NCBI RefSeq assembly: GCF_001598795.1
Contig: NZ_BCZP01000024.1
Location: forward strand, 1 to 32,000
DNA: 32,000 nt
From: Delftia acidovorans NBRC 14950
GTDB taxonomy: Bacteria > Pseudomonadota > Gammaproteobacteria > Burkholderiales > Burkholderiaceae_C
Direction: 5' to 3'
A model generated the notes under the pieces. It was not told where the DNA came from and searched no databases. It saw only the letters and a program-made list of their open reading frames with translations. The translations under genes and the position numbers were made by a program. Positions 1,718 to 23,443 of the stretch are shown here, piece by piece. Each line of letters starts with the position of its first letter. Position 1 is the first letter of the stretch.

Positions 1718-1731
1718 CCGTAGATCAGTTT
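1718..1731. repeat. Left arm (CCGTAGATCAGTTT) of a perfect 14-bp inverted repeat bracketing the protease cassette
   Basis: The reverse complement AAACTGATCTACGG occurs at 3010-3023. This arm overlaps the protease stop codon (1725-1727) and sits at the GC drop. Confidence 0.6.
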
Positions 1732-3005
1732 GTAAGAAGCTTTATATTATAGTATTTAGTCAAATATGGCCCAAGTGGTTGGTAAACTGACTTTGCTGCC
1801 GGGCCTCCGCCGAAGACTGCGCCACAGGTTCCGTCGGGATGTTCCCCGGGTGACCCAACATAAATGCCGATAGCATTAAAGGCATTCGAAACCACAGGGC
1901 CTCCAGAATCGCCGGGGCCTCCGCAGGCTGAAAATTCGCCAAAGAAGAATTCACGGCCTTTTATTGTATGACGGGTGCTTGGTGTTACTAACGTTCCGCA
2001 TCGCCAGCCATTGCTTCCTCCGGAAGTACAGATAGTTGTAAATGGTGTTGGAACTATCAGTGGCTTGACGTTTGCAAGGTTGTTGCCGGTCGTAATTATT
2101 TGCCGCTGCAAAGTATGTACGAAATTTGTGTTGCCAAAAAGAATGGCATCCATTTTGTGTTCCCAGCCATCTGCGAAAAACTCACCAATTAGTGGGCCTT
2201 TTATAGATCCGGGGCTATTGCCTGTGTTGAAATGGACAAATTTTCTTGATCTATCGTAATCAAGACAGTGCGCTGCTGTAATTGATCCTGGGTATATGTC
2301 GTCAATCACTACATGAAATCCAGTTGTGCATAAATACATGCTTTGGGTGCCATCGTATGTTGCGCCTATTTTTGTCCCAGAATATATGGTTCCCATTAAA
2401 GTAATCGGGCCATTTTGTTCTTCAAAAACAATTATTGATGTGTCAATGCCAGATCGTTGAATTATTTCTGTAATGTACTGATAGTTCTCTTTGCGACCGC
2501 GAACAAATACTTTATTTTCTTTTTCATAGACGCCGCTGCTTAGTAGAATTGCTTCGCCGCCTTGCTCAATTCCTCTGAAAATATCTGCGATTTTTGTCTC
2601 TATAGAATTTAGATAGGCTAAATTATAATTAACCTTCTTGAAAACAATTCGCTGGTTTTTATTTTGATTTTGGCTATTTTGTCGAAATATTGTTTCTTCT
2701 CCAGAAACTCCAATGACTAGTGTGGCGCGTTTATTGTCATCATATTCAATCCATGCACCACCAAATTCGTTGCCTAATTCTTGTTTTATGCTTTCCAAAT
2801 TTTTAGTTGATTCCGCTATTATGTTGTCATTATCGCTGGTTGCATATTCCTCTAGGCCGGCCGCCTTTAATGCGGATTCCTTTGAAGTATGTTTTGTAAA
2901 TGTGGTCTGATTTCCCTCGGTGACCGCATTTTCTTGGGAATAAGATGTTGTTGAAATAAGAAGGCCTAATGCAAGAAATATATTGCGCATAGTTGATTTA
3001 CTCAT
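1725..3005 (-). CDS. Secreted S1 (chymotrypsin-fold, alpha-lytic/streptogrisin-like) serine protease with signal peptide and long pro-region
   Basis: 426-aa ORF. N-terminal signal MSKSTMRNIFLALGLLISTTSYSQ. Catalytic His motif TAAHC (nt 2265-2279) and Ser motif GDSGGP (nt 1896-1913). About 36% GC between ~65% GC flanks. No Shine-Dalgarno before the ATG. Confidence 0.85.
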   Translation of the reverse strand: MSKSTMRNIFLALGLLISTTSYSQENAVTEGNQTTFTKHTSKESALKAAGLEEYATSDNDNIIAESTKNLESIKQELGNEFGGAWIEYDDNKRATLVIGVSGEETIFRQNSQNQNKNQRIVFKKVNYNLAYLNSIETKIADIFRGIEQGGEAILLSSGVYEKENKVFVRGRKENYQYITEIIQRSGIDTSIIVFEEQNGPITLMGTIYSGTKIGATYDGTQSMYLCTTGFHVVIDDIYPGSITAAHCLDYDRSRKFVHFNTGNSPGSIKGPLIGEFFADGWEHKMDAILFGNTNFVHTLQRQIITTGNNLANVKPLIVPTPFTTICTSGGSNGWRCGTLVTPSTRHTIKGREFFFGEFSACGGPGDSGGPVVSNAFNAIGIYVGSPGEHPDGTCGAVFGGGPAAKSVYQPLGPYLTKYYNIKLLTN

Positions 3006-3257: not shown

Positions 3258-6200
3258 ATGCCCCAGACCACCCAAAGCGCCGCCGATGGCGGCGTTGACC
3301 TGTTCGAGATTGCCGGTATCAATCCCACGGCGAAGACGGCAACCCAGGCCCCGACCGGCGACGTTGACCTGTTCGAGCTGGGCGGTATCTCCATCGATGT
3401 GCCAAAGCCCAAGCCACAGGGCATTGGCGGCTATGTGGCCGATGCCATCACCGACGTGTTCAAGCGCGCGGGCGGCGCCGCTCTCTCTGGCGTGGCTGCC
3501 GTGCCCGAGGCCGCCCAGTCGGGCGTCCGCGCCACGGTGCGCAGCGGCGCCGGCGGCGACCCCGCCACGGTCATGCCCGGCGGCGCCTTCATCCCAAGCA
3601 TTGACACAGACGAGGCCATCAACGGCCCGATGACGCAGCAGCAGCTCGACCGCCGCGAGCTGCAGGCCGAGCGCGCGGCCGTTGGCGTGCGCCTGCCGGG
3701 CGCGGAGGCGCTGGCACGCGCGGGCCGCGATACGCAGAAGGCCATCAACGACACTAACAGCCAAGCCACGCAGCATGCGGTGGCCAATTCCCAGATCACG
3801 GGCAATCTGCTCAAGGGCGAGATCGACTTCGGCAAAGACCCGTCTGTGCGCGGCTTCCTGATGCAGGGCGCAGACGTGTTCGGCAGCATGTTCCCCGTAG
3901 TGGCCACGGCGCTGGCCACACGCAGCCCGGGCGCGGCCGGCGCGGTGGGCGGCGCCATGGCAGCGGGCGAGGGCGTAGAGAACGCGCGGGAGTTCATCGC
4001 CAAGCAGTCGCACGAGCAGCTGCTGGACACCAGCCCGCTGTATCGCCGCATGGTCGATGCCGGCGCGCAGCCCGACGAAGCGCGGCGGATCACCAGCGCC
4101 AAGGCCGAGGATGCCTCGGCGCTGCTGCAGGGCGCGGTGGCCACGTTCGGCGACCGCTTCACCGGCAAGCTGGTGACGGGCGGACTCGACCCGCTGCTGG
4201 CCCGCGTGGCCGGCCGCTCGGTGCTGGGCAAGACTGCGGCCGGCGCGGGCATCTCGGCGCTGGAGGAGGGCACGCAGGAGCTGATGGAAGGCGTGGCCTC
4301 GGACCTGGGCACCAAGAGCGTTGCCCACGGCAAGGAAATCGGCGAGGACTCGGCCGCCAACTTCGTGCTGGGCGCGCTGGGCGGATCAGCACCAGGTGCT
4401 GCCCGGGGCGTGGTGGCCGGCGTGAAGGATCGGGGCGCCAAGGCGGATGCCGGCGGGCGCAGCACGGTCATCGACGTGACCTACAAGGACGCCGAAGGCA
4501 ACACGGTCACGGACGTGGCCACGACCGCAGACGCTTACCCAGGTGACGGCGCTGCAGCTGCGCCTGTGCAAGACGCCCAGGCCTCGGCGCCTGTCTCGGC
4601 GCCGGCCGCGCCGCAGACGGAACAGCAGCGCGTGCAGCAGCCCGATGGCACGCCCGAAACCATGGACAGCACCACGGCTGCCACGCGCCTGGCCGAGCTG
4701 GAGGTGATCGACAGCACCACGGGCCTGAACCCGGTGCAGCAGGAGGAGCGTGCAGCACTGGCCCAGCGCCTGGAGCAGGACGCGGCGCGCGAGGCCGAGC
4801 TGGAAGCCCTGGGCGATGAGCCCCAGGCCGTGGCCGCCGAAGCTGCTGCGGACGAACAGGCCCCGGCGTTTGATCCGGGTGCAGTGCGGTCCAAGACCTG
4901 GCCCCAGTTTGTGCACGAGCGCGGCGAGAAGGTGGCCACCCTGCGCCGGGGCACGCCCATCTGGGACCAGCTGCAGCACGAATGGGCCGCAGTGAAGACG
5001 CGCCGCGCCGGCACCAACCCCGAGGGCACGGGCGCCGCCGGCACGCCGGCCCAGGAGATCCAGAACCGCGACCGCAGCCGGCCTGCCAGCGTGGTGCAGA
5101 TGCAGGGCATGGCCCAGAACCCCGACTACCTGCGGCTGGGCGTCTCGCGCAGCCCAGAGTCTGGCGCGCCCATGGTGTTCGCCGTGGGCGACCAGGCCGA
5201 CGCCGTGCAGGCGCTGGGTCGGGCCGACGTGGCCGTGATGAGCGATGGCCAGCGCGTGCCGTTCCGCTATGGCGTGATGGAGGCGGCCGACGTGCAGCCG
5301 TCCAACTTCGCGGACGGCGCCGTCAATCCGCTGTTCGACGCAGCGCACCCGGGCACGGTCAAGGCCTTGAACAACGGCCGCGTGGCAGGCCTGCGCGCTG
5401 CCTACGAGCGCGGCACGGCCGACGCCTACCGGCAGGAGCTGGCCGCCGACAGCGACATGCACGGCATCGACCCGGCCGCCATCGCCGGCATGCATGCCCC
5501 GGTGTTGGTGCGCCTGTACTCCGAGAAGGACAACCAGGTCAACATGGGCGCCAAGAGCCAAAGCCAGGCCTTGGGCCTGTCCGCCACGGAGCAGGCCGCC
5601 ACCGATGCGGCACTGGTGGACGGCGGCGTGCTGGAAGTGTTCGACAGCGGCGCCCTGGACAGTGCGGCAAACCGCGACTTTGCCCGCGCCTTCATCGGCA
5701 AGCTGCAGGAGCAGGGCCAGGACGTGGCCGGCATGGTGGACGCCAATGGCGCGCTCTCACCGGCCGGCGTCACCCGCCTGCAGGCGGCCCTTGTGCACAA
5801 GGCCTACGGCGACGGCGACCTGGTTGAATCGCTGTTCGGCTCCACCGACAACGACATCCGCGCCATTGGCGAATCCCTCAAAGCCGTGGCTGGCGAATGG
5901 GCAAACCTGCGCCTGGCGGCCGAGCGCGGCGCCATCAATGCCGAGGTGGACGTGACCGAGAACCTGCTGCAGGCCATCCGCCTGGTGCAGAAGGCCCGGC
6001 GCGAGCGCGCGGCCCTGCACGACGCTGTGCAGCAGGTGGACATGCTGACGGGCGACGTGCCCGATGCCCTGACCGTGGGCATGCTGCGCCTGCTGTACAG
6101 CGGCCATTACCTGACCCGGCCCGTGGGCCGCGACCGCCTGGTGGAGTCCCTGCGCGCATACATGGGCGCTGCCTTAGCGACCTCGGCCAGCGGTGATATG

Positions 6201-9200
6201 TTCGGCGAGCAGGTAGGCCCTGCCGCAATCCTTGCTGCCCTGAGCGGCCAACCCGTCCCAAAGCGACAACAGACCAATGACACAAGCACCGACTCCCAGC
6301 AAGCCCCAGCCCCGCAAGGCAGCCGAGAACCCCCTGGCAGCGATGCTGCTGGGCAGCGTGCTGATGCAGCAGGGCCAGAAGCACAGCGACAAGAGCCAGA
6401 CGGAGCAGGGCGAGCAGCTGCTGGAGATCGCGCAGAACGCCCAGGGCAAGATGCCGACGCCGACAGCGGCGCCGTAGCGCCCGCGCTGGAGCTTTCCAGC
6501 TACACCCCCGAAGAAATCCAAGCCCAGCAGGCCCAGCAGCAGGAGGCCGAGCAGCGCCGTGCGCGCGACGATGCCAAGGCAGATGCGGACGCGCGGGCCG
6601 AGCGCGAGCGCAAGGAAGTGGCCGAGCGCCAGACTGCCAGCGCCGAGCACTTCCAGCTGGGCCAGGATGCGAACGACTCGCTGAGCGGGCAGAAAGGCAT
6701 CTTCGATGCGCCGGCCGAAGCCGAGCCGGCCCAGCGCCACGATCTGGAGGCCATGTTCGACGAGGTGCTGGACGAGGTGGTCACGGAGCGCCAGGCCTCG
6801 CCCCGCTCCGGTGACTCGGTGCCGCACGGCAAGGCCTTGACGCAGGAGGCCGCCCAGGCTGCAGCCCAGGACTACCTGCGCTGGCTCGGCGCAAAGGCGC
6901 CCGGGGATGTGCGCCCCGGCATCCATGGCGGCTACACCTTCGAGGGCGGCCCCGGTGCCGTGCGCGTGAAGGCCGGGCACATCAAGGTGGACGGTCAGGA
7001 CCGCCTGCAGTTCCCGATTCAGCGTCTGCTCAAGCTGGCTGACCCGGCCAAGCCCAAGCCGCGCGGCCAGGCCGCCCAGAAGGCCGCCGGACAGGAAGCC
7101 GCGCGGGCGGCCTATTTCACGCCGGACAACATCGTCCGAAGCCAAGACGGCAGCCACGATCGCGTTGTCTCGTACACGGCACCCGATGCGGATGGCCGCT
7201 GGAGCGTCACCGTGCGTCCCGTGGAAAAGGAAGGCAATTCATGGGTGGATGTGCCAGGTCTGCGCGAGCGCACCCACGGCACGCAGCCCGATACCCGTGC
7301 ATTGAAGGCCGGCCCGGTCGCTCAGGCGCAGCCCGAGCGCGGCGCCGGTGAGGCACTGGCCAGCGCAGCCAAGAATGCCGGCGCGGGCCTGGCCGCCGCC
7401 ATCGATGGGCTGGGCGAGCTGTTCGGCGGCGCGGGCAAGCTCGGCTCAGGCCTGTCCTTCGATGAGCAGACATACGCCAAGGCCAAGCCGCTGTTTGCCC
7501 AGGCCGTGGCCAACCTGCAGGTCGCCGGCACTGACCTGCGCGATGCCATGCGGGCCGTGGTGCGCATGGTCGTAGACAAGTTCGGCGCCGAGGCGGCCGT
7601 ACGAATGAAGCCGTATGTTGTGCGCTACATCGAGGAAATGCGCGACAAGCATGCCGCATTCCCCGAAAATACCTCCAACGGAAAGGACACCTCCCATGTA
7701 TCAGGCTCCGCTGCCCATCTGGAACGAAATCGCCCGGAGTCAGCCGGTGCTCCCTCCGATGCTTCCCTCGATGCGCGAACTGTTCAGCGCGACACCCGAG
7801 ACTCTGCCAGCGCTGATCGACAAGCACCTGGACAAGCCGGCCGAGGCGATGGGGCTGGACACTCCGACGACGCTGGCTTTTCGGCTGGTGATGCCGCTGT
7901 TTATGGAAAACGAAGCGATCAGCGCATTCATCGAGGCGAAAGGCCAACCGCAGCTTCGCAGCTGCTTGCCGGAACTGACAACGGTCAGGGAGTGTCTGGA
8001 GCTGGCCGCACTGGAATACCGGCTCGACCAGTCACAACTGGCCAGCTTGCAGCGATCACTCGTGCAGCACGCGCAGCGGCTCGAAACCGAAGCGATAGCA
8101 GCAATGAACGCAGCGCAGAACGCGCAGTAGGTCCGGCGGTTGCGCCCAGCGCGGGCGAGGCCGCGCACCTGGCCAAGGGCGAGCAGCCGGCCCGCGCGCA
8201 TCGGCAGATCGACCTGACCGACGCGAGCAGCGTGGAGGAGCTTTTCGAGCGGCTGGAACACCTGGACCTGCCCACACGCACCAAGCCTCGGCAGGCCGCT
8301 GCAGCTGCTGGACCAGCGCCTGTAGGCGCCCAGCCGGCCACGGTGCCCAGCACGGCCACCCCACAGGCCCAGCCCGCGCCGGCCCAGCTGGCTACGGGGG
8401 AGCCCGGCTCCCTGAGTGGCCAGCTGCAGCGCGACGGGCGCCCGCTGGTGCCGCACACGACCAAGGGCGGCAAGCCGCTGCAGGGCATCGTCATGCAGGG
8501 CGTGGACCGGGACACGGCCATGCTCTACGACCCATACACCTTCAAGAAGGACGGCGGGTATTTCATCCGGGCCAAGCACCTGGCGCGCGAGGGCGTGGGA
8601 TTCCGGCGCGGTGAGAGCGCCGTGGCGCCGGCCATGACGGCCGACCTGGCGCAGGAGCTGCTGCGCATTGCCGGCAGCACGGCGCCTGCCGGTGGACGTG
8701 GAGCCCAGCAGGCGCCCATGGCGCGCGCGCAGAAAGTCGTGGACGAGGTGCGCAAGGCCTGGGCCAACGCGCCGCGCATCAACGTGGTGTTCGACCTGCA
8801 AGACCCGCGCGTGCCCCAGGAAGCGCGCGACACGGAGCGGCTGCAGGCGGCCGAGGGTGCAGAGGGAGTGCCCAAGGGCTTCTACTTCGATGGCGAGGTC
8901 TACCTGGTGGCGAGCCAGCTGGCCACGCCAGAGGAAGCGACCCGCGTGCTCTTCCACGAGGCGCTGGGCCACCACGGGCTGCGTGGTGCCTTTGGCGAGA
9001 AGCTGGACGCGGTGCTGGACCAGATCATCGTGGCCCGCCCGCGCGAGGTGCGCGCCAAGCTGCAGGAGTATGGCGAGCTGGACGACCTGGTGGGCCGGCG
9101 CTACGCGGCCGAGGAGGTGCTGGCCGAGATGGCCGAGATGCAGCCGCATCTGGGATTCGTGCGCCGCGCCGTGGCAGCCATCCGCGCCTGGCTGCGCGCC

Positions 9201-12200
9201 CATGTGCCCGCGCTGCGCGACCTGGCCATGACGGACGCGGAGATCATCCGCGACTTCATCCTGCCGGCGCGCCGCTGGGTGGAGCGTGGCGCTCTGGCTG
9301 CCGCTTCCGCGCCGGCAGCAAAACCTGCGTTCAGCCTGGACAGCGGTGCGGGCCGTCGCGCGCTGCAGGAACTGTCCGAGCTGGACGACCTGTTCACGTT
9401 CCCGAAGTCGCAACAGAAGGACCTGGCTGCCATCGCAAAGGAGCACAACCCCGAAATTCAGGTGAGCAAGCCCATCAGCATTGCAGGGCGCCAGGAGTAC
9501 ACGCTGACCATGCCGGGTGGCAAGAAGGCCATCCTGTCGGTGCGCCAGCCCAACCCGTATGGCGGCGAGCAGGTCTACGACATGCTCTACACCGCCGAGG
9601 GCATGGAGGCCGTGACCGGCCGGCCCGGTGTGAACCCCGAGGACGTGCCGCCCACGCCCGACGTATGGCTGGACGTGTCCCGGCTGGACCAGGGCGATGC
9701 CGGTGCAATGGCCTACAGCATCGCCTCGACCTTTGCCCACAACACAGACAGCATTTTCATCGGCGACCCGCACGGCCTGAGCAAGACCGCGCTGCGCCGC
9801 CGGCTGGAGCAGATGCTGTCCAGCGCCTTGAAGTTCGGCACCACGCGCCACCTGGCGCCGCATCCCGACCAGGTGCGCGGCGGCCATGGTGTGCCGGGCC
9901 TGCGATGGGTCTATGGGGATGACGTGGGCAATGTGGAGCGCATGATTGCGGCGAGCTTGGAGGGAATGGATAATGCATTTCCTTCATCCAATCAGATTGC
10001 ATACGATGCCGAACGAGGCACTTTCCGACTATCCGATTCCGGGCAGCAACTATCAAGACAGCAATTGGCTGGCTTGGTTGGACAATCCATCGAAAGAAGA
10101 CGTCGAATGGATGCAAGCGCGCCAGGAGACGCGGAAGCTGGCTGGCGAACAGTTGCGCGAGCGGCTGTCTGGCGTTCCCTTCTACGCGGAGAGGGCAGCT
10201 CGGGTGAAGGCAATCGACGGGGACGAGGCGCTGTACTGGGAAGGTTTGCTGAGCGGCACGCACAAGTTCTAGGCGACCCCAGTCCCAAGCTGCGCGTTTT
10301 CTACAGCCGCGGCCCCGCTGCCGGCGCGGCCACGCCGGCACCCTCAAAGGGCCTGCTGGGCCGCCTGCAGGACAAGGTGGCGGACCTCACCGGCTACCGC
10401 TCCGTCGATGACTTCCTCTACGCTTGGCAGGACAAGTTCATTGACCTCAAGCGCATCCAGGAACATATCAAGGCCCTGAACGGCACCGTCAGCGAGACGA
10501 ACGACGCGTACAGGGGCGAGGAGCTGTACCACAAGCGCGTGGCCAAGCGCACGGCAAACTTCCTGCGCGACGAAGTGCAGCCGCTGCTACGGCGCCTGAA
10601 CGCCACGGGCGTGGCCATCGAGGAGCTGGAGCGCTTCCTGCACGCCCGGCACGCGCCCGAAGCCAACCGCGTCATGGCCGAGCGCAACCCTGGCGCCCAG
10701 CAGCTGCAGGCGCAGCGCGATGGCGCCGCCAAGACCGTGGAAGATCTGCGCCGCCAGCTGCAGCGCGCTCAGGCCCGGGGCATGGCCACCGGCCCGGTGC
10801 AGAAGGCGCTGGGGCAGGCCCTCATCGACCAGGACCGCTGGGACGGCGCGGAGGCCTTCACAGGCACCGAGGACGAGCGCCTGTCCCTGTCGGGCATGAG
10901 CGATGCCGAGGCAGCGGCGGTGATGGCCAGCTACAGCCCGGAGCAGCGCCAGGTGCTGGACGAGCTGGCTGCGCGTGTGGACCGGATGAACGAAGGCACG
11001 CTGCAGACACTGGAGAGCTACGGCCTCATGGACCAGGCCACGCTGACGGCCTGGCGCAAAACCTACCGGCACTACGTGCCCCTGCACCGTGACGAAGCCC
11101 ACCCGGAGAGCAAGGCTCACCCCATTGGCCAGGGATTCAGCACCAAGGGCGATGCGGCCAAGAAGCGCACGGGCTCAAACGAGCGCGTGACCAACATCCT
11201 GAGCCACATCGTCATGCAGCGAGAGGCGGCATTGACGCGCGGCGAAAAGAACAACGTGGTCAAGCGCCTGTACCTGCTGGCCGCCCAGAACCCGGACAAA
11301 GATCTGTGGAGCCTGGAACTGCCCAAGAAAAAGGCGCTGGACCCTGATACCGGCCTGGTGCGCACAATGGTGGACCACGCGGCGAAGCTGCGCGCCAATG
11401 TCGTGTCGGTGCGGATCGGCGGCAAAGACCAGTACATCGTGTTCAACGAGCGCAACGAGAAGGCCGTGCGCCTGGCCATGGCCATGAAGAACATGGACGC
11501 CATGGAGCTGGACAGGTTCACGCGGGGCGCGGCCTGGATCACGCGCTGGTTCGCATCCGTCAACACTCAGTACAACCCGGTGTTCGGCGTCATGAACCTG
11601 GCGCGCGACCTGCAGGGCGCCATGCTGCAGCTGTCCACTACCCCCTTGGCCGGCAAACAGGCAGAGGTCTTCCGCAACATCCGGCGCAACACGCGCGCGA
11701 TCTACAAGGATCTGCGCCGCGAGCGTCGAGAGGAGGGCATCGGCACGAGCGAATGGGCCAAGCTGTGGGAGCAGCTGCAGCTGGACGGCGGCACCACGGG
11801 CTACCGTGACCTGCACGCCGATCCCCAGGACCGGGCCAAGAAGCTGCAGAAGGCGCTGGACCAGGTGGGCGAGGGCAAGGTGGTCGGCAGCGGCCGGGCG
11901 CTGCTGGCCTGGCTGTCGGACTTCAATGAAACCCTGGAAGCAACCACGCGCCTCGGCGTCTACAAGGCTGCGCTGGACCAGGGCATTAGCCGCCAGGAGG
12001 CCGCGAGCATCGCCAAGAACATCACGGTGAACTTCAACCGTAAGGGCCGGAATATGCCCGTGGCCGGCGCGCACTTCGCTTTTCTGAATGCGGCAATCCA
12101 GGGCAACAAGCGCATGCTGGAGACGCTGGCGGGGCCGGCCGGCCGCAAGATCATGATGGGCGGGGTGGCCCTGGGCATGGTGTCGGCCATGGCCGGCTAC

Positions 12201-13169
12201 CTGATGATGGGCGGCGGGGATGGTGCAGACGACGAGTGGAAGAAGATCCCGGGCTTTGTGAAAGAGCGGTCCATCATCATTCCGCTGGGCCGGCAGGACT
12301 ATGTGGCCACCCCGCTGCCGCTGGGGTTCCATGTGTTCCCCAACATCGGCCGCACCATCGTGGAGATGGCCGTGCACGACGACCCGACAAAGAGCCGAAT
12401 GGGTCACGTCCTGGACATGGCCGTGCTGGCCATGGATGCCTACAACCCGCTGGGCGGCTCTTCAAACCTGGGGCAGTTGGTGTCCCCCACCTGGCTCGAT
12501 CCCACAGTGGCGCTGTGGCAAAACCAGGACTGGACGGGCCGAGAGATCTACCGTGAAGACCGCAGCTCCAAGGACCCTAAGCCTGGCGATGCTCGGGCCA
12601 AGGATGCGGCTCCAGCTCCCTACAGGGTGATGGCCAGGACTGTGAACGCTATCAGCGGCGGCAACGAGTGGCGACCGGGCGAGTTCAGCCCCACGCCCGA
12701 GGCCATCGAGTACCTGTTCGGGCAGATCACCGGGGGCGTGGGCCGCGAAGCGTCCAAGGTCGCCAGCATGGCAACAGCGGCCTGGACGGGGGAGGAGTTG
12801 GCCGCGCACCAGCTCGTCCTGGTCGGCCGGGTCTATGGCAACTCGCGCGGTGTGAACGGGCAGAGCGCTGGCTACTACGAGAACGTCAAGCGCATCAACG
12901 TCAGTATGGCCGAGGCCAAGGGGCGCGTGGAGCGCGGGGAGGAGGCCGATGCTGTGTTGCTGGACGTGCCACTGGCTCAACTGGACGGTGCCGCATCCCT
13001 GGTGGACAAGCACATTTCCAACCTGGTGAAGGCGCGGCGCCGCGTGCATGCCAGCGACGATCCGAACAAGCGCGAGTTGGTCAAGTCGATCAATCAGGAG
13101 ATTGAACTCTCAATGCGGCAGTTGAACCAGGGGGTTGAGGATGTGCTTGGCAATTTCGGGGGGCGATGA
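3258..13169 (+). CDS. Giant 3303-aa multidomain protein, tentatively a phage/conjugative-element 'polyvalent' or virion-injected type with a C-terminal membrane-inserting region
   Basis: Uninterrupted 9,912-nt ORF in frame 3. ATG 3258 has GAGG 8 nt upstream. GC3 is very high over most of its length. Duplicated N-terminal G(G/D)VDLFE(I/L)xGI motif (15-bp GTTGACCTGTTCGAG twice, ~3293 and ~3362). Around aa 600-720 (...NNGRVAGLRAAYERG..., nt ~5370) it recalls ParB/ddrB-ParB-like domains, from memory only. FHEALGHHG metal-site-like motif at nt 8955-8975 has HExxxH spacing, not canonical HExxH. Q/A/E/R-rich linkers. Hydrophobic helices near aa 2964 (KIMMGGVALGMVSAMAGYLMMGG). Three stretches lose the frame-3 codon signature (see nested ORFs). 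Confidence 0.75.
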   Translation: MPQTTQSAADGGVDLFEIAGINPTAKTATQAPTGDVDLFELGGISIDVPKPKPQGIGGYVADAITDVFKRAGGAALSGVAAVPEAAQSGVRATVRSGAGGDPATVMPGGAFIPSIDTDEAINGPMTQQQLDRRELQAERAAVGVRLPGAEALARAGRDTQKAINDTNSQATQHAVANSQITGNLLKGEIDFGKDPSVRGFLMQGADVFGSMFPVVATALATRSPGAAGAVGGAMAAGEGVENAREFIAKQSHEQLLDTSPLYRRMVDAGAQPDEARRITSAKAEDASALLQGAVATFGDRFTGKLVTGGLDPLLARVAGRSVLGKTAAGAGISALEEGTQELMEGVASDLGTKSVAHGKEIGEDSAANFVLGALGGSAPGAARGVVAGVKDRGAKADAGGRSTVIDVTYKDAEGNTVTDVATTADAYPGDGAAAAPVQDAQASAPVSAPAAPQTEQQRVQQPDGTPETMDSTTAATRLAELEVIDSTTGLNPVQQEERAALAQRLEQDAAREAELEALGDEPQAVAAEAAADEQAPAFDPGAVRSKTWPQFVHERGEKVATLRRGTPIWDQLQHEWAAVKTRRAGTNPEGTGAAGTPAQEIQNRDRSRPASVVQMQGMAQNPDYLRLGVSRSPESGAPMVFAVGDQADAVQALGRADVAVMSDGQRVPFRYGVMEAADVQPSNFADGAVNPLFDAAHPGTVKALNNGRVAGLRAAYERGTADAYRQELAADSDMHGIDPAAIAGMHAPVLVRLYSEKDNQVNMGAKSQSQALGLSATEQAATDAALVDGGVLEVFDSGALDSAANRDFARAFIGKLQEQGQDVAGMVDANGALSPAGVTRLQAALVHKAYGDGDLVESLFGSTDNDIRAIGESLKAVAGEWANLRLAAERGAINAEVDVTENLLQAIRLVQKARRERAALHDAVQQVDMLTGDVPDALTVGMLRLLYSGHYLTRPVGRDRLVESLRAYMGAALATSASGDMFGEQVGPAAILAALSGQPVPKRQQTNDTSTDSQQAPAPQGSREPPGSDAAGQRADAAGPEAQRQEPDGAGRAAAGDRAERPGQDADADSGAVAPALELSSYTPEEIQAQQAQQQEAEQRRARDDAKADADARAERERKEVAERQTASAEHFQLGQDANDSLSGQKGIFDAPAEAEPAQRHDLEAMFDEVLDEVVTERQASPRSGDSVPHGKALTQEAAQAAAQDYLRWLGAKAPGDVRPGIHGGYTFEGGPGAVRVKAGHIKVDGQDRLQFPIQRLLKLADPAKPKPRGQAAQKAAGQEAARAAYFTPDNIVRSQDGSHDRVVSYTAPDADGRWSVTVRPVEKEGNSWVDVPGLRERTHGTQPDTRALKAGPVAQAQPERGAGEALASAAKNAGAGLAAAIDGLGELFGGAGKLGSGLSFDEQTYAKAKPLFAQAVANLQVAGTDLRDAMRAVVRMVVDKFGAEAAVRMKPYVVRYIEEMRDKHAAFPENTSNGKDTSHVSGSAAHLERNRPESAGAPSDASLDARTVQRDTRDSASADRQAPGQAGRGDGAGHSDDAGFSAGDAAVYGKRSDQRIHRGERPTAASQLLAGTDNGQGVSGAGRTGIPARPVTTGQLAAITRAARAAARNRSDSSNERSAERAVGPAVAPSAGEAAHLAKGEQPARAHRQIDLTDASSVEELFERLEHLDLPTRTKPRQAAAAAGPAPVGAQPATVPSTATPQAQPAPAQLATGEPGSLSGQLQRDGRPLVPHTTKGGKPLQGIVMQGVDRDTAMLYDPYTFKKDGGYFIRAKHLAREGVGFRRGESAVAPAMTADLAQELLRIAGSTAPAGGRGAQQAPMARAQKVVDEVRKAWANAPRINVVFDLQDPRVPQEARDTERLQAAEGAEGVPKGFYFDGEVYLVASQLATPEEATRVLFHEALGHHGLRGAFGEKLDAVLDQIIVARPREVRAKLQEYGELDDLVGRRYAAEEVLAEMAEMQPHLGFVRRAVAAIRAWLRAHVPALRDLAMTDAEIIRDFILPARRWVERGALAAASAPAAKPAFSLDSGAGRRALQELSELDDLFTFPKSQQKDLAAIAKEHNPEIQVSKPISIAGRQEYTLTMPGGKKAILSVRQPNPYGGEQVYDMLYTAEGMEAVTGRPGVNPEDVPPTPDVWLDVSRLDQGDAGAMAYSIASTFAHNTDSIFIGDPHGLSKTALRRRLEQMLSSALKFGTTRHLAPHPDQVRGGHGVPGLRWVYGDDVGNVERMIAASLEGMDNAFPSSNQIAYDAERGTFRLSDSGQQLSRQQLAGLVGQSIERRRRMDASAPGDAEAGWRTVARAAVWRSLLRGEGSSGEGNRRGRGAVLGRFAERHAQVLGDPSPKLRVFYSRGPAAGAATPAPSKGLLGRLQDKVADLTGYRSVDDFLYAWQDKFIDLKRIQEHIKALNGTVSETNDAYRGEELYHKRVAKRTANFLRDEVQPLLRRLNATGVAIEELERFLHARHAPEANRVMAERNPGAQQLQAQRDGAAKTVEDLRRQLQRAQARGMATGPVQKALGQALIDQDRWDGAEAFTGTEDERLSLSGMSDAEAAAVMASYSPEQRQVLDELAARVDRMNEGTLQTLESYGLMDQATLTAWRKTYRHYVPLHRDEAHPESKAHPIGQGFSTKGDAAKKRTGSNERVTNILSHIVMQREAALTRGEKNNVVKRLYLLAAQNPDKDLWSLELPKKKALDPDTGLVRTMVDHAAKLRANVVSVRIGGKDQYIVFNERNEKAVRLAMAMKNMDAMELDRFTRGAAWITRWFASVNTQYNPVFGVMNLARDLQGAMLQLSTTPLAGKQAEVFRNIRRNTRAIYKDLRRERREEGIGTSEWAKLWEQLQLDGGTTGYRDLHADPQDRAKKLQKALDQVGEGKVVGSGRALLAWLSDFNETLEATTRLGVYKAALDQGISRQEAASIAKNITVNFNRKGRNMPVAGAHFAFLNAAIQGNKRMLETLAGPAGRKIMMGGVALGMVSAMAGYLMMGGGDGADDEWKKIPGFVKERSIIIPLGRQDYVATPLPLGFHVFPNIGRTIVEMAVHDDPTKSRMGHVLDMAVLAMDAYNPLGGSSNLGQLVSPTWLDPTVALWQNQDWTGREIYREDRSSKDPKPGDARAKDAAPAPYRVMARTVNAISGGNEWRPGEFSPTPEAIEYLFGQITGGVGREASKVASMATAAWTGEELAAHQLVLVGRVYGNSRGVNGQSAGYYENVKRINVSMAEAKGRVERGEEADAVLLDVPLAQLDGAASLVDKHISNLVKARRRVHASDDPNKRELVKSINQEIELSMRQLNQGVEDVLGNFGGR
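6277..6477 (+). CDS. Nested +1-frame ORF E1 (66 aa: MTQAPTPSKPQPRKAAENPLAAMLLGSVLMQQGQKHSDKSQTEQGEQLLEIAQNAQGKMPTPTAAP)
   Basis: Frame-1 ORF inside the giant frame-3 ORF. Hand-counted GC3 is ~87% in frame 1, while frame 3 falls to about half. It ends in TAG and frame-3 GC3 resumes immediately after. There is no clear SD, so it is the weakest of the three. Confidence 0.4.
   Translation: MTQAPTPSKPQPRKAAENPLAAMLLGSVLMQQGQKHSDKSQTEQGEQLLEIAQNAQGKMPTPTAAP
7696..8130 (+). CDS. Nested +1-frame ORF E2 (144 aa, helical/acidic: MYQAPLPIWNEIARSQPVLPPMLPSMRELF...)
   Basis: ATG 7696 has AAGGA (7683-7687) 8 nt upstream. GC3 is ~76% in frame 1 versus ~45% in frame 3 by hand count. The protein composition looks natural, whereas frame 3 reads as R/S/G/A/D low complexity. 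Ends in TAG (8128-8130). Confidence 0.55.
   Translation: MYQAPLPIWNEIARSQPVLPPMLPSMRELFSATPETLPALIDKHLDKPAEAMGLDTPTTLAFRLVMPLFMENEAISAFIEAKGQPQLRSCLPELTTVRECLELAALEYRLDQSQLASLQRSLVQHAQRLETEAIAAMNAAQNAQ
9973..10272 (+). CDS. Nested +1-frame ORF E3 (99 aa: MHFLHPIRLHTMPNEALSDYPIPGSNYQDSNWLAWLDNPSKEDVEWMQ...)
   Basis: ATG 9973 has GGAGGG (9959-9964) 8 nt upstream; an alternative ATG is at 10006. GC3 is ~71% in frame 1 versus ~45% in frame 3. Local GC dips to ~55%. Ends in TAG (10270-10272). Confidence 0.5.
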   Translation: MHFLHPIRLHTMPNEALSDYPIPGSNYQDSNWLAWLDNPSKEDVEWMQARQETRKLAGEQLRERLSGVPFYAERAARVKAIDGDEALYWEGLLSGTHKF

Positions 13170-13336
13170 TGAAAAGGGTACGGTTCTTCTGGTGTGCAAC
13201 TGCTGCCGTCCTATTGTGGTCTTTTGGGTGCCTTCGTGTAGGGTCTACTTTGCAGGGGAAACCACCGTTGCCTGCTCCGGCTGAACTGACGCCAGATACC
13301 GCATTACGGTCGCCAACACGCTCGGACAAGGGATGA
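13166..13336 (+). CDS. Small (56 aa) signal-peptide or possible lipoprotein ORF (MMKRVRFFWCATAAVLLWSFGC|LRVGSTLQGKPPLPAPAELTPD...)
   Basis: ATG 13166 overlaps the giant ORF stop (13167-13169, ATGA). N-terminal basic plus hydrophobic segment ending SFGC, a non-canonical lipobox. The mature part is Pro-rich. It is below the 60-aa ORF-track cutoff and GC3 is only ~50%, so coding is uncertain. Confidence 0.35.
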   Translation: MMKRVRFFWCATAAVLLWSFGCLRVGSTLQGKPPLPAPAELTPDTALRSPTRSDKG

Positions 13337-13516
13337 AGGCGCAACAGGTTCCAGAGGTGCCAGTCAAGGATTCGTGTCGACGTGGATCTAGTTTGTCGTC
13401 GAGATCTCTCCGATCAATAGATTAGGATGTACCTTCTCTCGAAGGGAAGATTCCTGGTACTCTCCAATCGGAGAATCACGAGTGCATCAAACTGGGCTGT
13501 AAAAATCTATGTGAAT

Positions 13517-13546
13517 TTGTTAGAGGGCGGCAGCTTGCTCTAAAAT
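13517..13546 (+). promoter_or_regulatory. Candidate sigma70 promoter for the helicase-nuclease gene (-35 TTGTTA, 18-nt spacer, -10 TAAAAT)
   Basis: Hexamers at 13517-13522 and 13541-13546, about 29 nt upstream of the ATG at 13575. The ATG has a strong SD (GGGAGAAGG). Pattern match only. Confidence 0.3.
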
Positions 13547-13574
13547 TGCACACATTAAAGGGAGAAGGCGTCTT

Positions 13575-16097
13575 ATGGTTGATTTCAGTAAAAAGCTTGC
13601 AAGCAAGAAGGTCTCAAAAGTATCGGACCCCATTGAGCTATATAAAGGTCTTGATCGGGCCAGCGACAAGGGTCCACTTCGTCCTTCTCAGGATGCGATA
13701 TTTCGAGAGTGGAATGCGACCGGTCGCAATCAGCGCGACGTCATCGTCAAGCTGCACACCGGCCAAGGCAAGACGCTGGTTGGGCTTCTGATGCTGCAGG
13801 CCCGCCTGAACGAAGGAAAAGGTCCGTCCGTCTACCTTTGCCCGAACAACTACCTCATTGAACAGACCTGTGAGCAAGCGCGTCAGTTCGGAATTGCAAC
13901 GTGCCAAGCAGAACCTGATCTGCCCGAGGCGTTCCTCACAAGCGAGCAGATCCTTGTGACATCGGTGCAAAAACTCTTCAACGGCTTGACGAAATTTGGC
14001 CTTGAACGCAACTCAGTTTCTGTCGGGACTCTCCTGATGGACGATGCTCACGCGTGCGCAGATACGATCCGTGATCAATGCAAGATCCGTATCGATACCA
14101 GTGAACCAGCGTACCAAGCGCTCCGAACCTTGTTCGCTGCCGAGCTTGAACTACAAGGCGTTGGTACTTACGCTGACATCTGTAATGGGAAACAAGATGC
14201 GCTGCTGCCGGTTCCCTATTGGGTCTGGCGTGATCGCGAGTCCGACGTTGCAGCGATCCTGTCGGCAGCATCTGACCGAAGGAGCGTCAAATTCGCATGG
14301 CCGCTCTTGCGCAATATGCTCGCACACTGTCAGTGCGTTGTGTCCGGAACCTCGATCGAGATTGAGCCGCATATCGCACCGCTTCAATCTTTCGGAAGCT
14401 ACTGGAAGGCGGAGCATCGGATTTTCATGTCTGCCACGGTGACTGACGATGCATTCCTGATCAAAGGGCTTCGGCTGCAGCCATCGACGATCGTTGCTCC
14501 ACTTCTTTACTCTCAAGAAAGTTGGTCCGGCGAGAAGATGGTGCTGCTGCCTTCTGTCATCAATCCGCTGTTGGATCGTGAAGCGATCGTCGCTAAATTC
14601 GCTCCCAAGGATGCGCGTCGCCACTATGGCGTTGTGAGCCTCGCGACCTCTTTCAAGAACACAGCTGATTGGGAGACCTACGGTGCAAAGGTGGCAAAAA
14701 CGGAAACTGTGTGGACGGACATTAACGCATTGCGTAAGGGAAACTACGAGCAGACGCTGGTGCTGGTCAATCGCTACGACGGCATTGATTTGCCAGACGA
14801 TGCCTGCCGAATTTTGGTGATCGATGGAAAGCCCTACTCCGAGAGTCTGATAGATCTTTATCAAGAGGACTGCCGCCCGGCGAGCGACACTACCCTAATG
14901 CGTCTGGTTCGAAACATTGAGCAGGGCATGGGGCGAAGCGTGCGAGGCGAGAAAGACTATTCTGTGATTCTTGGAATCGGCGCTGATCTCACTCGGGCGC
15001 TCCGAGACCAGCATTCGCGAAGCTACCTATCGTCCCAGATGGCGACACAGATCGAGATCGGCATTGAGGTGGCTGGGTTCGCGAAAGATGATATTGCCAA
15101 TGGAGCCGATGCTGAGACGGCGTTCTTCGGCCTCATCCGTCAGTGCTTGGGTCGGGATGAGGGCTGGAAGGCGTTCTATGCCGAGTACATGGAGAAGGTT
15201 GAACTGAGAGGCGCCAATAAGCGGCTGCTCGGTATATACGCTGCTGAGCTTGAGGCTGAAGAGCTGTTTATGGCTGGAGACTACAGTGGTGCGGTGCAGC
15301 GCATTCAGAAGTTGATGGACGAACAAAATTTCGATGCGCCTGATCGTGGATGGTATCTCCAAACCATGGCGCGATACAGCTATCCGCTCGATCGGGCAGA
15401 GTTCAAGCGCCTGCAATTGGCTGCGCACGGAGCCAATCGCATAGTGATGAAGCCACCACAAGGTCTGAAGGTCACGAAACTTTCAGTGGTGAGTCAGGGA
15501 CGCGTTGAGCGAATAGCCCAATGGATTCGCAACCACAACGATTACGCCGAACTTGACATTGCGTTGGCGGACATTCTCGGACGTCTTGTATTCGGCGTGA
15601 AGGCGGACAAGTTTGAACAGGCGCTTGATGAGCTGAGCCGGGCGCTGGGCTTTGCTGGCGAGCGGCCCGACAAGGAATGGAAGGAGGGTCCAGACAACCT
15701 TTGGGCGCTGGATGACGCTAACTATATCGTCTGGGAATGCAAGAACGAGGTCGATCTGAGCAGGTCGGAGATCAATAAGACTGAGGCCGAGCAGATGAAC
15801 CGTTCCGCGGCATGGTTCCGGAAACACTACGAGGGATGCACTGCCATCCACATTGAGGTGCACCCCGCGTACCAGGTACAGAGTGCTGCCAACTTCTTGG
15901 TAGACGTAAAGGTGATGCGAGAGAAGGAGTTGAAGACGTTTGTGAAGGCTGTGAAGAAGTTTTTCCAGTCATTTCAGCGCCTCAATCTCAAGGACTTGTC
16001 TCTGCCGCACATCCAGAATCTCCTTGTCGAGAATGGATTGGACGTTGACAACCTGCTCAATGGAAGCTTTATGAGGAAGACCGTTGACCTAAAGTGA
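13575..16097 (+). CDS. SF2 (DEAD/DEAH-type) helicase fused to a C-terminal PD-(D/E)xK nuclease-like domain; candidate Hna-like single-gene anti-phage protein
   Basis: 840-aa ORF with strong SD. Motif I HTGQGKT (13755-13775), motif II DDAH (14040-14051), motif III SAT (14430-14438). C-terminal helicase lobe ...[26 protein letters not shown]... and motif VI-like [11 protein letters not shown]. Nuclease core ...ALDD(15711-15716)ANYIVW-ECK(15735-15743). About 52% GC, lower than the flanking core. Confidence 0.85.
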
Positions 16098-16452
16098 CCC
16101 ATTATGACCGAGCAGCCTTCGATTTCGGAGGCGCTGCTTGTTTGGATGTTGTGCGGTTGCGCCAATTGCAACCGACGAATAGCTGGCGATAATTGCAGCT
16201 AATAATCAGCCTACCGGTGGGGAGTGAATTTGATTGCGCCTGTAGCAGGCATCCTGAGTGGATGCTCAATGACTGCTCCTGGCCGATCTTCGAGGCTCGC
16301 TGCTGCTCCCAGAGCTAGGACGCCAGCCTCGTAGAGACTGTTAGGCGTGTTCCAGCAGCTTAAACGGCCGCATGACGGACGGTGTGAGTCTCGGCCCCTG
16401 TGCTATGACCAAAAACTGTCCAGAATACGCAGCAATAGGGTGAAAAAGGCAA

Positions 16453-16712
16453 GATTTCGAAAACACCGGAAGCGTGGCTATCGCTGCAAGTTGTTAATCG
16501 GAAAGGTGTTTTCTCTCATGCCTATTTCGGTGGATCGGACTTTTAATCCGTTGGTTGCGGCTCCCTGGGCAGGTTGTATTCCCAGACGGGTCTATGCGCC
16601 TTTCTGTTCAAAGGCTTCCGGGCTTGGTAGGGCCTCCATCACCGGTCGGTACATGCAGACACCCGGATCTACGCACCATTAGAAGCACAACTGAGCCAGC
16701 GATGCTGCAAAG
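16453..16712 (+). repeat. Copy 1 of a ~255-bp diverged direct repeat, possibly a structured RNA, containing a tRNA-Lys-like anticodon arm
   Basis: Aligns with 23140-23392 in the same orientation. Conserved blocks are GATTTCGAAAAYAC, GCGTGGCTATCGCTGCA, ATTTCGGTGGATCGGACTTTTAATCYGTTGG (30/31 identical), TCAAAGGCTTC and GAAGCACA. Between blocks, different sequences form hairpins at equivalent places. A possible closing helix ATCGCTG (16480-16486)/CAGCGAT (16697-16703) is kept in copy 2 with a G-U. Confidence 0.55.
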
Positions 16713-17702
16713 TTGCTACGGAGGGTCGGGGGTATTCCTCTAAGTTGCTGTCAGATAATGATTTTCTTCAAATATCAATCCAGTCCATCATGGGCGCAAC
16801 GGACATGCGCCACATGCTGGCAGGTGCTTGATTTTCTACGTTTTTCATTGATCTGATTGGGTTTTTTGCTCTGGCGGCTGCTCTTGGTTTTACGCCGTGG
16901 AACCCCGCTTTTCCTATTGTTCCAGCTCTGGGTGCTACAGATTGGGCTTGTGGCGTGCAATAGGAGCCATCACTGCACGCAAGTCGAAAGGTTCTGACCA
17001 GCGAATGGTTGCACCGGCGGGGGTACGAGCTGCAGCAGGGGCGTGCTTCAGGCCGGGCTCTGCACAAGAAGGTCTCAGTGGGGAGCTGCCGCGGAATTAT
17101 GTCAGCGCGGCCGAAAACGTGACTGAGTGGGGTCGTAGCAAAAGGTGGACTTCGCGCCGGCCGGCCTCCGGCCTGGCCCGGCTTCAAGCGGCCAGGCCCA
17201 TGAGTGGCGCGACGAAGGCCAATGGAAGAGCACCGTGGCGGCTGCTCGGGTAGCCAGCAGGAAGGTGTTGATGCAGACCGGGACTGTCAAGGCAGCCAGC
17301 AGTCTGCCTATCCCGGCCACCAAGGCGAGTAGCGAGGCGGCTGCAGGTGCGGTTACAGGTGCGGTTACAGGGCAGCACCTGATCGGCCGCGAGACCGGCG
17401 CGGATCTTCGAATACGTGAGCCTGAGTTGCAGGCCTTGCATGCCTGGCACGCAAGCATAGTGGTGCTTGCAAAAGCCGGAGGCATTCCAGCATCAAACTC
17501 CAGCATGCACATTACTCACATATCGCGTCCAGCTTGCTTCTGGATAGTTTGAGTTTTGGAAAAAAGAAGTGCGTTAGATAAATTTGATCTTCAGTCATTG
17601 CGGATTGTTGAAAAAATTCTATTTTTCCGGATGCATTTTGTGGCAAGTTCTACATGTGCTTTGAGCATTGCATCATGTATTTAACCAGTTGAGGCAAATT
17701 GA

Positions 17703-19010: not shown

Positions 19011-19147
19011 TGCGGGTTTTTCTCATAAAACGTCTTTATTGAATCCTATGAATTCCTGGGCTAAAGGGGAATATCGAAGATTGGTCTGGATGCTCCGATG
19101 TGGAAACTGTCCTTGTTACGAAATGTTGACGCAAATAAGTCCATTTA

Positions 19148-19381
19148 TCAGGGTTTCTTTGCCTTGAAGAACTTCAGCAGAATTTCGCCATTCAACGCGA
19201 CTGCTTGATTTTTCAATATATCTGCTATATGTGATGGAGGCGCTTCTGTTGAATAGAGCTTGTTGTCGCTCACTCGATATAAGATCCTGGTGGCGCCCAT
19301 GATGAATTCGTCTCCTTCGATATGGCCTACATACCTGCCATTTTTTGTGTAGGCTTTCCACCATCCGCCTTCAATCATCAT
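19148..19381 (-). CDS. Hypothetical small protein (77 aa: MMIEGGWWKAYTKNGRYVGHIEGDEFIMGATRILYRVSDNKLYSTE...)
   Basis: Clean ORF in a low-GC stretch with natural-looking composition and a weak SD (GAGA). No family recognised. Confidence 0.5.
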   Translation of the reverse strand: MMIEGGWWKAYTKNGRYVGHIEGDEFIMGATRILYRVSDNKLYSTEAPPSHIADILKNQAVALNGEILLKFFKAKKP

Positions 19382-19859
19382 ATGTCTCTTTCAGTTGGGG
19401 ATTTTATCATTGGGGCTCATTGTGTTTTTGAGCGCAACCAGATTCTATGTTGATGATTATTCTTTTGTGCAGGCGAGACAAAAATTGACAGAGTTTGGAA
19501 ACCATTCATTTATTTGATAATGAGTTTTCAAAATCAGCCCATGGCGTGAGTTGTGGTGCCATCGATATCCAGGAAGAGGGCGACGACGATACGGACACCT
19601 CTTGCACCACCAAGGGCAAAGCCGGACACCAGCATGCCTGCCGGGCCCGCGGCCACCGCCGCTGCGACGGTACGCCTCCTGAACCAAGAAGTGCAAAACG
19701 TGTTTGTAAAAACAGAAGTGATAGTTTGCATGCTAAATGCAACCGACTTCTTGATAAGTTTCTTTAATGAAGTGCGTTTTGTTTCAGTTGACAATGTTTG
19801 ATACTTTTTTGAGTCGGATCCACGTCAGGTGGGTCTCGGCCTTACCGGAGCCTCCCCTG

Positions 19860-21749: not shown

Positions 21750-21761
21750 TACGCAGCTGTA

Positions 21762-21784
21762 TGAGCAGCTTGCTGAAAGCTGCT
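21762..21784 (+). terminator. 9-bp hairpin (GAGCAGCTT-gctga-AAGCTGCTC) just after collagen-like gene 1; no U-tract
   Basis: Perfect stem 13 nt downstream of the stop. Without a T-run, the terminator assignment is weak. Confidence 0.3.
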
Positions 21785-21911
21785 CGTGGCTCTACTCCCG
21801 TCCCGTTGATGGGCTTGAATGAGCCCGCGGTTCTATGTGAAGGATATGGCGGCAAAACCAAGCCGGCGTTGGCCGGCGCTCCGCAACGCCGATGACACAA
21901 CATTCACGACC

Positions 21912-22847: not shown

Positions 22848-22864
22848 CATATTTGGATTTTCAT

Positions 22865-23392: not shown

Positions 23393-23443
23393 CAGCCGTG
23401 GCCTGTCCGGGGCTGGCCGGATTGGGTCATGGTGCAAAGCCGC

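Follow-up and report, generated by a model that had tools for sequence, protein, structure and literature searches.

The subject of this study is a giant gene in Delftia acidovorans NBRC 14950 and three small open reading frames (ORFs), here called E1, E2 and E3, that lie inside it on the same strand in the +1 frame. The analysed sequence is a 32,000-nucleotide (nt) stretch of contig NZ_BCZP01000024.1, referred to as the window; coordinates are window positions unless a comparison locus or contig is named, and these carry L-numbers. A preliminary description made from the sequence had the giant ORF open from 3258 to 13169 through three frame-1 ORFs of 66, 144 and 99 amino acids (aa), counted from their ATG codons, and the ORF list confirmed this. 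The features are collected in Table 1.

Pfam places several unrelated domains on the single giant polypeptide: ddrB-ParB (aa 599-753), LPD37 (aa 2135-2311) and LPD38 (aa 2991-3186). Among PHROGs it matches phrog_14770 (2027 bits). The giant is a polyvalent protein of the phage type as defined by Iyer et al. 2017 (PMC5512222), where the DdrB-ParB and LPD38 domains are stated to be phage-specific. Its close relatives are the IMG/VR contigs L026 and L027 (~92% nt identity), the prophage L004 in a Delftia metagenome-assembled genome (MAG) and a Comamonas phage-plasmid (NZ_CP083940, closed), in which the homologous coding sequence (CDS) has 3832 aa. Megablast with the giant gene gave no match among phages, and among plasmids only the one from Comamonas.

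An N6-adenine methylase or helicase domain was not found by Pfam in the window's giant, so it is not DarB-like, whereas methylase and helicase modules are present in the giants of L001, L004 and L026. Directly after E2, L026 and L027 carry ~2.5 kb of extra DNA (L026 9833-12304) and L004 carries ~2.2 kb (L004 10365-12599), the latter encoding helicase-like sequence and an NPPF methylase motif (N6-methylase). This module was either lost from the window's giant or never gained. The L004 giant gene itself, from a Delftia lacustris MAG (7091-17160), is split by frameshifts into about seven called genes, which is probably a MAG assembly error.

Table 1. Features of the window. GC3, G+C content at third codon positions; dN/dS, ratio of nonsynonymous to synonymous substitution rates; AF2, AlphaFold.
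Feature	Position	Strand	Basis
Giant polyvalent-protein gene, 3303 aa, uninterrupted across E1, E2 and E3	3258..13169	+	ORF list
ddrB-ParB domain of giant protein	5052..5516	+	Pfam PF18763, E 4e-19
E1, probable nested +1 gene, 66 aa, basic, with hydrophobic helix (ENPLAAMLLGSVL)	6277..6477	+	GC3, homologues, dN/dS
Shine-Dalgarno-like AAGGA, 8 nt 5' of E2 ATG	7683..7687	+	Sequence
E2, nested +1 gene, 144 aa from ATG 7696 (171 aa from 7615)	7696..8130 (ORF from 7615)	+	Family homology, dN/dS, AF2 model, conserved nesting
Module junction right after E2	8130..8180	+	blastn break at 8176/8169
LPD37 domain of giant protein, C-terminal part co-encoded with E3	9660..10190	+	Pfam PF18853, E 9e-51
Shine-Dalgarno-like GGAGGG, 8 nt 5' of ATG 9973	9959..9964	+	Sequence
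E3, nested +1 gene	9973..10272 (99 aa) or 10006..10272 (88 aa, usual family start); ORF from 9946 (108 aa)	+	Homologues, dN/dS, openness P 0.001
LPD38 (PLxRFG) C-terminal domain of giant protein	12228..12815	+	Pfam PF18857, E 1e-37
DEAD/ResIII helicase gene, downstream of giant gene	13575-16097
HD-domain protein gene, downstream of giant gene	17703-19010
IPTL-CTERM protein gene, downstream of giant gene	19767-20582
Two collagen-repeat proteins, one with BclA C-terminal domain, downstream of giant gene	20604-22847

The coding signal changes frame three times within the giant ORF

A sliding count of G+C by codon position gave a GC3 of 0.8-0.97 in the giant frame over most of the ORF, and this dropped to 0.42-0.50 only at ~6230-6500, ~7670-8120 and ~9920-10280. 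In these three stretches the G+C maximum shifts to giant codon position 1, where the +1 frame has its third position. The exact GC3 values in the nested and giant frames are 0.90 and 0.46 for E1, 0.76 and 0.43 for E2, and 0.71 and 0.41 for E3. The preliminary description gave ~87, ~76 and ~71% for frame 1 by hand count, and the quantitative profile shows the frame switch in all three stretches. Substitutions follow the same pattern. Relative to L026 (92% identical), there are more changes at giant codon position 1 than at position 3 in three places only, 6225-6449, 7650-8111 and 10062-10286, with just 3-4 substitutions per 50-codon window in the E1 stretch.

The composition shift could instead come from antisense genes whose wobble base falls on giant position 1, such as the minus-strand ORF 7740-9887. 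This 715-aa ORF overlaps E2, and its third positions do coincide with giant position 1. However, long antisense ORFs are usual at 70% G+C, and homologous loci often have nothing longer on the minus strand over E2 than an ORF of 58-150 aa, which does not cover E2, while the plus-strand E2 family has fixed boundaries and a confident predicted fold. Antisense coding can be given almost no credence. The same is true of the idea that sequencing or assembly indels, or fixed compensating frameshifts, lie at the junctions and that the giant is truly read in frame 1 there. The frame-1 reads resemble ordinary protein while the frame-3 reads look off-frame, and L004 is fragmented by frameshifts, but more than 40 independent assemblies share the architecture, among them a closed plasmid and cultured phages with finished genomes. 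Indels between giant homologues are whole codons. Additionally, stops close the frame-1 ORFs at either end, and therefore frame 1 cannot join the flanks.

When the nested ORFs were shuffled synonymously, the probability that the giant frame stays open was 0.80 for E1, 0.14 for E2 and 0.001 for E3, so from the window alone E3 is the sole case of significant openness. The earlier counts of T-ending nested codons proved exact: E1 has one, E2 has 12, of which 11 are followed by a codon starting with C or T, and E3 has 16, with such a successor in 13. The two Shine-Dalgarno sites that had been reported, before ATG 7696 and ATG 9973, are also where they were placed.

E2 belongs to a large family of predicted helical proteins

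E2 matches 23 database proteins, which are 118-140 aa long except for one 244-aa product from a fragmented Delftia MAG. Alignment with 22 small homologues showed an invariant Met, a Met-Tyr/His-Gln start and the motifs WNxIAxSQ, PLLxENEAIS, LRxSLPEL and LAxxEY. A profile search of 1.84 billion representatives returned 503 clusters, nearly all of 115-140 aa and matching from residue 1. Many homologous loci have GGAG or AGGAG 5-10 nt upstream of the conserved ATG, and the start and stop positions are conserved down to ~30% identity. The AF2 model of E2 is all-helical and confident (predicted local distance difference test [pLDDT] score 83, predicted template modelling score 0.76).

Compared with the Comamonas plasmid, E2 has the same Met and 56% identity, and substitutions number 43, 35 and 64 at E2 codon positions 1, 2 and 3; therefore the giant's own third position varies least. 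Nei-Gojobori dN/dS was 0.16-0.40 in 12 pairs (0.20 between the window and L026), and the E2 columns read in the giant frame gave 1.1-3.8 in 12 pairs. These data indicate that E2 is a real gene and a member of a large unannotated family of helical proteins. It is carried by the cultured phages Skulduggery, Parlo, D274, 45A6 and ZX1 and is unannotated in the records opened, which include RefSeq Skulduggery and Parlo; the Parlo record does annotate an embedded Rz1-type spanin. In Skulduggery, which grows on P. fluorescens SBW25, nested E2 lies near NC_070827 33577-33918, and the host of Parlo is Serratia. Two ideas about function were rejected. E2 as the fused-phage counterpart of a P1 dar accessory gene failed because hhalign shows it to be unrelated to P1 Ulx and DdrA, and charge-based DNA mimicry by E2 and E3 failed because their mean isoelectric points are just 5.7 and 5.2.

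The family boundaries also bear on programmed +1 ribosomal frameshifting, by which E1, E2 and E3 would be alternative C-termini of truncated giants and no free small proteins would exist. The nested ORFs are on the same strand in the +1 frame, and in the window the E2 frame is open for 29 codons upstream of ATG 7696, as such a mechanism would have it. However, a frame-1 stop lies immediately 5' of the conserved ATG in L006, L040, L044 and L048, which does not fit a frameshift product, and the family Met is invariant, often has a Shine-Dalgarno site and is where profile matches begin. Together with the existence of stand-alone homologues, this leaves frameshifting as a very improbable account.

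The nesting of E2 is conserved and the giant frame is kept open across it

The set of E2 loci (n=53) was made up of 49 from collection scans with the E2 alignment together with four earlier-fetched loci and the window. The hosts in the E2 records include Beta-, Gamma- and Alphaproteobacteria, Acidobacteria, Desulfobacterota, Planctomycetes and others, and the G+C of the loci ranges from 0.39 to 0.69. The preliminary description had asked whether orthologues carry giant-frame stops at this place, and the giant frame was open across the whole E2 homologue in 49 of the 53 loci. E2 was always +1 relative to the giant, and the other forward frame, which served as a control, was never open for more than 61 codons. 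In 44 loci E2 lies wholly inside a same-strand host ORF, which spans 1,172-5,599 codons.

The number of stops to be expected was estimated by re-encoding the E2 proteins of 38 loci, each with codon frequencies taken from the giant gene that contains it. A total of 171.6 giant-frame stops was expected across E2 and none was observed, and this includes loci of 39-46% G+C. T at the E2 wobble position was found 301 times against 663 expected, and before codons starting with AA, AG or GA it was found 0 times against 174.5 expected. The giant-frame read over E2 was also less hydrophobic than expected in 35 of the 38 loci, with z down to -4.5. Stand-alone E2 homologues (L011 1948-2322, L012 10001-10375 and L024 10001-10393) have 5-7 stops in the giant-equivalent frame, and therefore the E2 sequence alone does not hold the giant frame open. 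Their neighbours are chromosomal housekeeping genes (MurB, an epimerase and a short-chain dehydrogenase in one case; diacylglycerol kinase, Sir2 and CarA in another), so the E2 family also exists outside phages. These comparisons support the earlier suggestion of selection against giant-frame stops, which at E3 is also seen within the window, and they indicate that the giant frame is under selection across E2; the comparative case for this openness is overwhelming.

A further locus, L002, was rejected as truly stand-alone, as its flanks are a decayed giant gene with the giant frame still open. This fragment (L002 4911-10375) adjoins a type I restriction-modification operon (hsdR, hsdM, hsdS), a HipA_2 gene and a DUF3037 gene.

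These counts also weigh on the simplest competing explanation, in which four large and three small genes are separate and frame 3 is continuous only by chance, owing to high G+C. On short contigs, gene callers do report E2 and E3 as separate genes, and the openness at E1 and E2 is not significant in the window alone. However, such an accident would have to account for the missing stops, 0 against the 172 expected, for the missing wobble T in stop-forming contexts and for the stops that stand-alone homologues do have. Flanking segments share one frame in every locus, and the giant-frame read over E3 is homologous to LPD37. Separate genes are therefore regarded as a very unlikely arrangement.

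In nine of nine other diverse loci, E2 ends 20-50 residues before a superfamily 2 (SF2) helicase domain of the ResIII/DEAD/Strawberry-notch type, and a small helical domain, in several variants, precedes E2 in many loci. Of the two frames, E2 seems to be the older: its GC3 is genome-like and some of its homologues stand alone, and the giant read is of low complexity. The giant's linker would then be the likelier newcomer, and the giant may have grown by reading through E2.

E3 is nested at the end of the LPD37 domain

E3 has nine database homologues, most of which are 88-89 aa and start at the second Met. In L026 the ATG equivalent to 9973 starts a short upstream ORF of 7 codons, whose end is 7 nt ahead of the conserved family ATG. 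Substitutions in E3 are most frequent at position 3 in 15 of 15 pairs and follow the order position 3, position 1, position 2 in 13 of them; all 15 pairs also have fewer amino-acid differences in E3 than in the giant frame, and dN/dS is 0.20-0.48. Over E2 and E3 together, the dual-frame comparison proposed earlier gave a dN/dS of 0.16-0.48 in the nested frame and 1.0-3.8 for the same columns in the giant frame. The giant frame is also open across E3 in L026, L004, L060, L064 and L067-L070.

The giant-frame read through the whole E3 overlap aligns by blastp with the LPD37 C-terminal part of the giant of Erwinia phage PEp14. At the same place the Erwinia phages PEp14, Stean and Pavtok have a 60-aa +1 ORF with the same end position that is recognisably E3-like, and it is unannotated within the giant CDS of PEp14 and Pavtok; in PEp14 it occupies NC_016767 37775-37954. 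When PEp14 is compared with Pavtok, a drop in giant GC3 from ~0.85 to 0.43 and an excess of changes at position 1 over position 3 coincide exactly with this spot. The substitution pattern shows that E3 is under selection in frame 1. Because the nesting at the LPD37 end is shared with the Erwinia phages and the giant read aligns, E3 is linked to LPD37, with both reads old. This limits the earlier view that the frame-3 read in the three stretches is an off-frame-looking linker, which holds for E1 and E2 but not for E3. In the window and in the Erwinia phages, positions ~190-242 of the PF18853 (LPD37) profile match E3-coding DNA (window 10006-10190), and part of the conservation in the LPD37 model may therefore stem from the other reading frame.

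In the metagenome contigs L054-L057 only the 3' part of the giant remains (E3 and a 931-aa LPD38 part), behind an unrelated Phage_capsid_3 gene and next to a Peptidase_S8 and AAA ATPase pair. E3 in L054 (10001-10300) is intact and identical to the window at 298 of 300 nt, and the giant frame there has a TGA inside E3. Throughout L054-L057 the E3 stretch is ~99% identical to the window and its flanks ~87-90%, an excess that would reflect either recombination or strong dual-frame constraint. Homology of L054 to the window starts ~215 nt before E3 and the extra module of other giants starts right after E2, so the nested genes mark module borders.

Local dips in G+C had suggested that the three small ORFs may be recently inserted cassettes. 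This was rejected, since the nesting is ancient and linked to modules, E2 standing before the SF2 helicase and E3 at the LPD37 end in phages of both Beta- and Gammaproteobacteria. The dip may be a plain effect of overlap, because nested GC3 (0.71-0.90) does not exceed what is usual for the giant and giant GC3 falls to 0.41-0.46.

The case for E1 is the weakest

ORFs resembling E1, in which the motif NPLaa.LLg.VL precedes a helix, occur in the +1 frame of about eight Comamonadaceae-type giants, which form one clade only. E1 lies after the ddrB-ParB block. A collection scan with the single E1 protein matched only itself, and the E1 alignment was too variable to serve as a query. E1 is shorter in the window than in its relatives, and dN/dS is 0.15-0.55 in closer pairs. 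Of the nested genes it is the weakest, and it is rated as a probable gene.

This raises the question of whether the nested ORFs are relics of genes that were engulfed by fusion and are no longer expressed or useful. Such a reading is served by the features of E1, which is short, is not preceded by a Shine-Dalgarno site and has a dN/dS of about 1 in two of the three most diverged pairs, and for E1 alone relic status is a serious possibility. For the nested genes as a group it is unlikely. E2 and E3 are under purifying selection in many pairs, and their starts and stops are conserved to the low identities given above. Relics would gather frame-1 stops, but E3 is intact even where the giant is truncated and interrupted.

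Surroundings of the giant gene

Just upstream of the giant gene, a 426-aa ORF on the minus strand (1725-3005) has 39% G+C within DNA of ~65-70% G+C and has no Pfam match. It gives the impression of a foreign gene acquired recently. Blocks of lower G+C (0.47-0.55) follow the giant gene downstream at 13000-20000 and 22000-25000, and these could be a moron or a defence island at the end of a prophage. Rfam and tRNA scans of the window were empty.

Discussion

The data presented here favor true dual coding, which is judged to be probable. The 9.9-kb gene would be read as one continuous polyvalent protein, and the same message would yield E1 (66 aa), E2 (144 aa) and E3 (99 or 88 aa) by independent internal initiation in the +1 frame. 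With this offset the wobble base of a nested codon is the first base of a giant codon. The giant stops (TAA, TAG and TGA) begin at that wobble base, and therefore a synonymous T-to-C change removes each of them and the small protein pays little. In the E1 and E2 stretches the constraint would lie on the small gene, and the giant read there is a hydrophilic linker in which R, S, G, A and D abound. The giant frame is selected for openness and hydrophilicity, and at E3 also for the LPD37 sequence. The patterns of substitution and of missing stops show that both frames are maintained by selection, with conserved nesting and a tuned wobble position. The evidence for this comes from E2 and E3 and not from E1 alone. 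The core of the preliminary description, small +1-frame proteins within a giant whose continuity selection keeps, is supported by the nested dN/dS at E2 and E3 and by the stop-free giant frame in dozens of diverged loci.

Several observations count against dual coding or against parts of it. Translation of the small ORFs, the single-chain giant and an accessory role for the nested proteins are all inferred from sequence. E2 matches no family or fold, and its function is without homology support: no credible match was found for E1, E2, E3 or the E2 family in Pfam, PHROGs, NCBIfam or PDB sequences, Foldseek with the predicted E2 model had no match below E = 1 in PDB or BFVD, and look-ups of the E2-family clusters gave no names. 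The window keeps E2 under purifying selection yet lacks the helicase module, so a strictly helicase-dependent role of E2 is doubtful. For E3, the window has no Shine-Dalgarno site before the usual family start at ATG 10006, and the structural model is poor (pLDDT 61). For E1, the window has no Shine-Dalgarno site at all, dN/dS is 1.0-1.4 in two of the three most diverged pairs, and at this G+C chance is enough to keep the giant frame open (P 0.80).

Each nested gene is tied by its position to a particular module: E2 between the small helical domain and the SF2 helicase, E3 at the LPD37 end and E1 after the ddrB-ParB block. Because of these ties, the nested proteins are most likely accessory proteins that are linked to modules and co-inherited with them during domain shuffling. 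The linkage seen is one of position, and a nested product may act together with its neighbouring module. A related LPD38 giant, gp47 of phage phi24B, is abundant in phi24B virions and has been proposed to be an ejection protein (bioRxiv 10.64898/2026.04.10.717836), and by analogy the window's giant may be packaged in virions and delivered to the host.

Embedded out-of-frame genes are textbook rarities in double-stranded DNA (dsDNA) phages, with Rz1 as the standard example; Rz/Rz1 and phiX174 are the classic cases of embedded +1 genes. Like Rz1 within Rz, the nested genes described here would be complete small genes with their own starts, in the +1 frame and wholly inside a larger same-strand gene, with both frames open. 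However, the host here is a 3,300-aa polyvalent protein with three nested genes and not a ~150-aa spanin with one, and in the E1 and E2 stretches the constraint would fall on the nested gene, with a linker in the host frame. The nested proteins showed no similarity to spanins (Rz1) by sequence (Pfam, PHROG, NCBIfam), nor did the predicted E2 fold. The overprinted genes of small viruses, such as phiX174 E within D and K within A/C (reviewed in PMC8227390 and PMC3494269), are similar in that the same nucleotides encode two proteins in different frames; one of the frames has an odd composition and a hydrophilic or disordered product, and 'synonymous' change in that frame is suppressed. They differ in that the genomes here are large and of dsDNA phages, with no obvious compaction pressure, and in that the direction at E2 looks reversed: the small gene is genome-like and has stand-alone homologues, and it is the giant's linker that is odd.

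Other phage systems obtain more than one protein from the message of one structural gene, such as lambda C/Nu3, T7 10A/10B and the tail chaperones G/GT. Their products, which are nested in frame or fused to the host protein by a frameshift, share sequence with it, whereas the nested genes here are entirely out of frame and have their own starts, some with stops directly upstream. Among polyvalent proteins (Iyer et al. 2017, including P1 DarB and DdrB), the window's host gene is a typical phage-type member whose relatives carry an SF2 helicase, though it differs from DarB in being without the methylase and helicase modules that define it. In that paper, a search by terms turned up nothing on overlapping genes, frameshifts or out-of-frame ORFs. 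In the phage P1 record (L066 26577-26975), iddB is annotated inside ddrB on the opposite strand, a candidate nested gene in a dar-system protein. The preliminary description knew of no account of multiple nested genes in polyvalent giants, and the full-text literature searched, with incomplete coverage, likewise gave no description of nested genes in polyvalent or DarB-like proteins.

A GC3 scan of other high-G+C giants also found +1 stretches with protein-like, Met-initiated ORFs. These are L013 9161-9442, 13196-13864 and 14705-14965, L022 2061-2333, L032/L038 13187-13579 and L049 4081-4260, together with L007 7694-7885 and L049 2644-2778, which share the basic peptide MALKPLKPSKQ(K/R)RKDK. 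Except for that peptide they recur only between near-identical loci, and they are treated as candidates.

It is conceivable, though rather doubtful, that out-of-frame nesting is a general design of phage polyvalent proteins, in which each mobile module carries its own +1 partner gene at its border and giants grew by reading through pre-existing small genes and not by overprinting new ones. If this is true, shuffling recombination could never separate a module from its partner, which could be a chaperone, a packaging adaptor or an inhibitor that keeps an enzymatic domain harmless in the producing cell.

The E2 family counts at least 503 clusters and has still escaped annotation, although the gene that harbours it is among the most conspicuous in phages. 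Conserved proteins are systematically overlooked by gene callers when they lie within giant ORFs, and at least one Pfam domain model (LPD37) runs into a dual-coded stretch. The +1 offset together with wobble T-to-C changes would be a simple rule for threading a long ORF through an existing gene, and the more than 40 diverged dual-coding loci are a natural data set for models of overlapping-gene evolution. For polyvalent "antirestriction" proteins, the three nested genes offer three new candidate partner proteins, for which host-phage pairs are available in culture.

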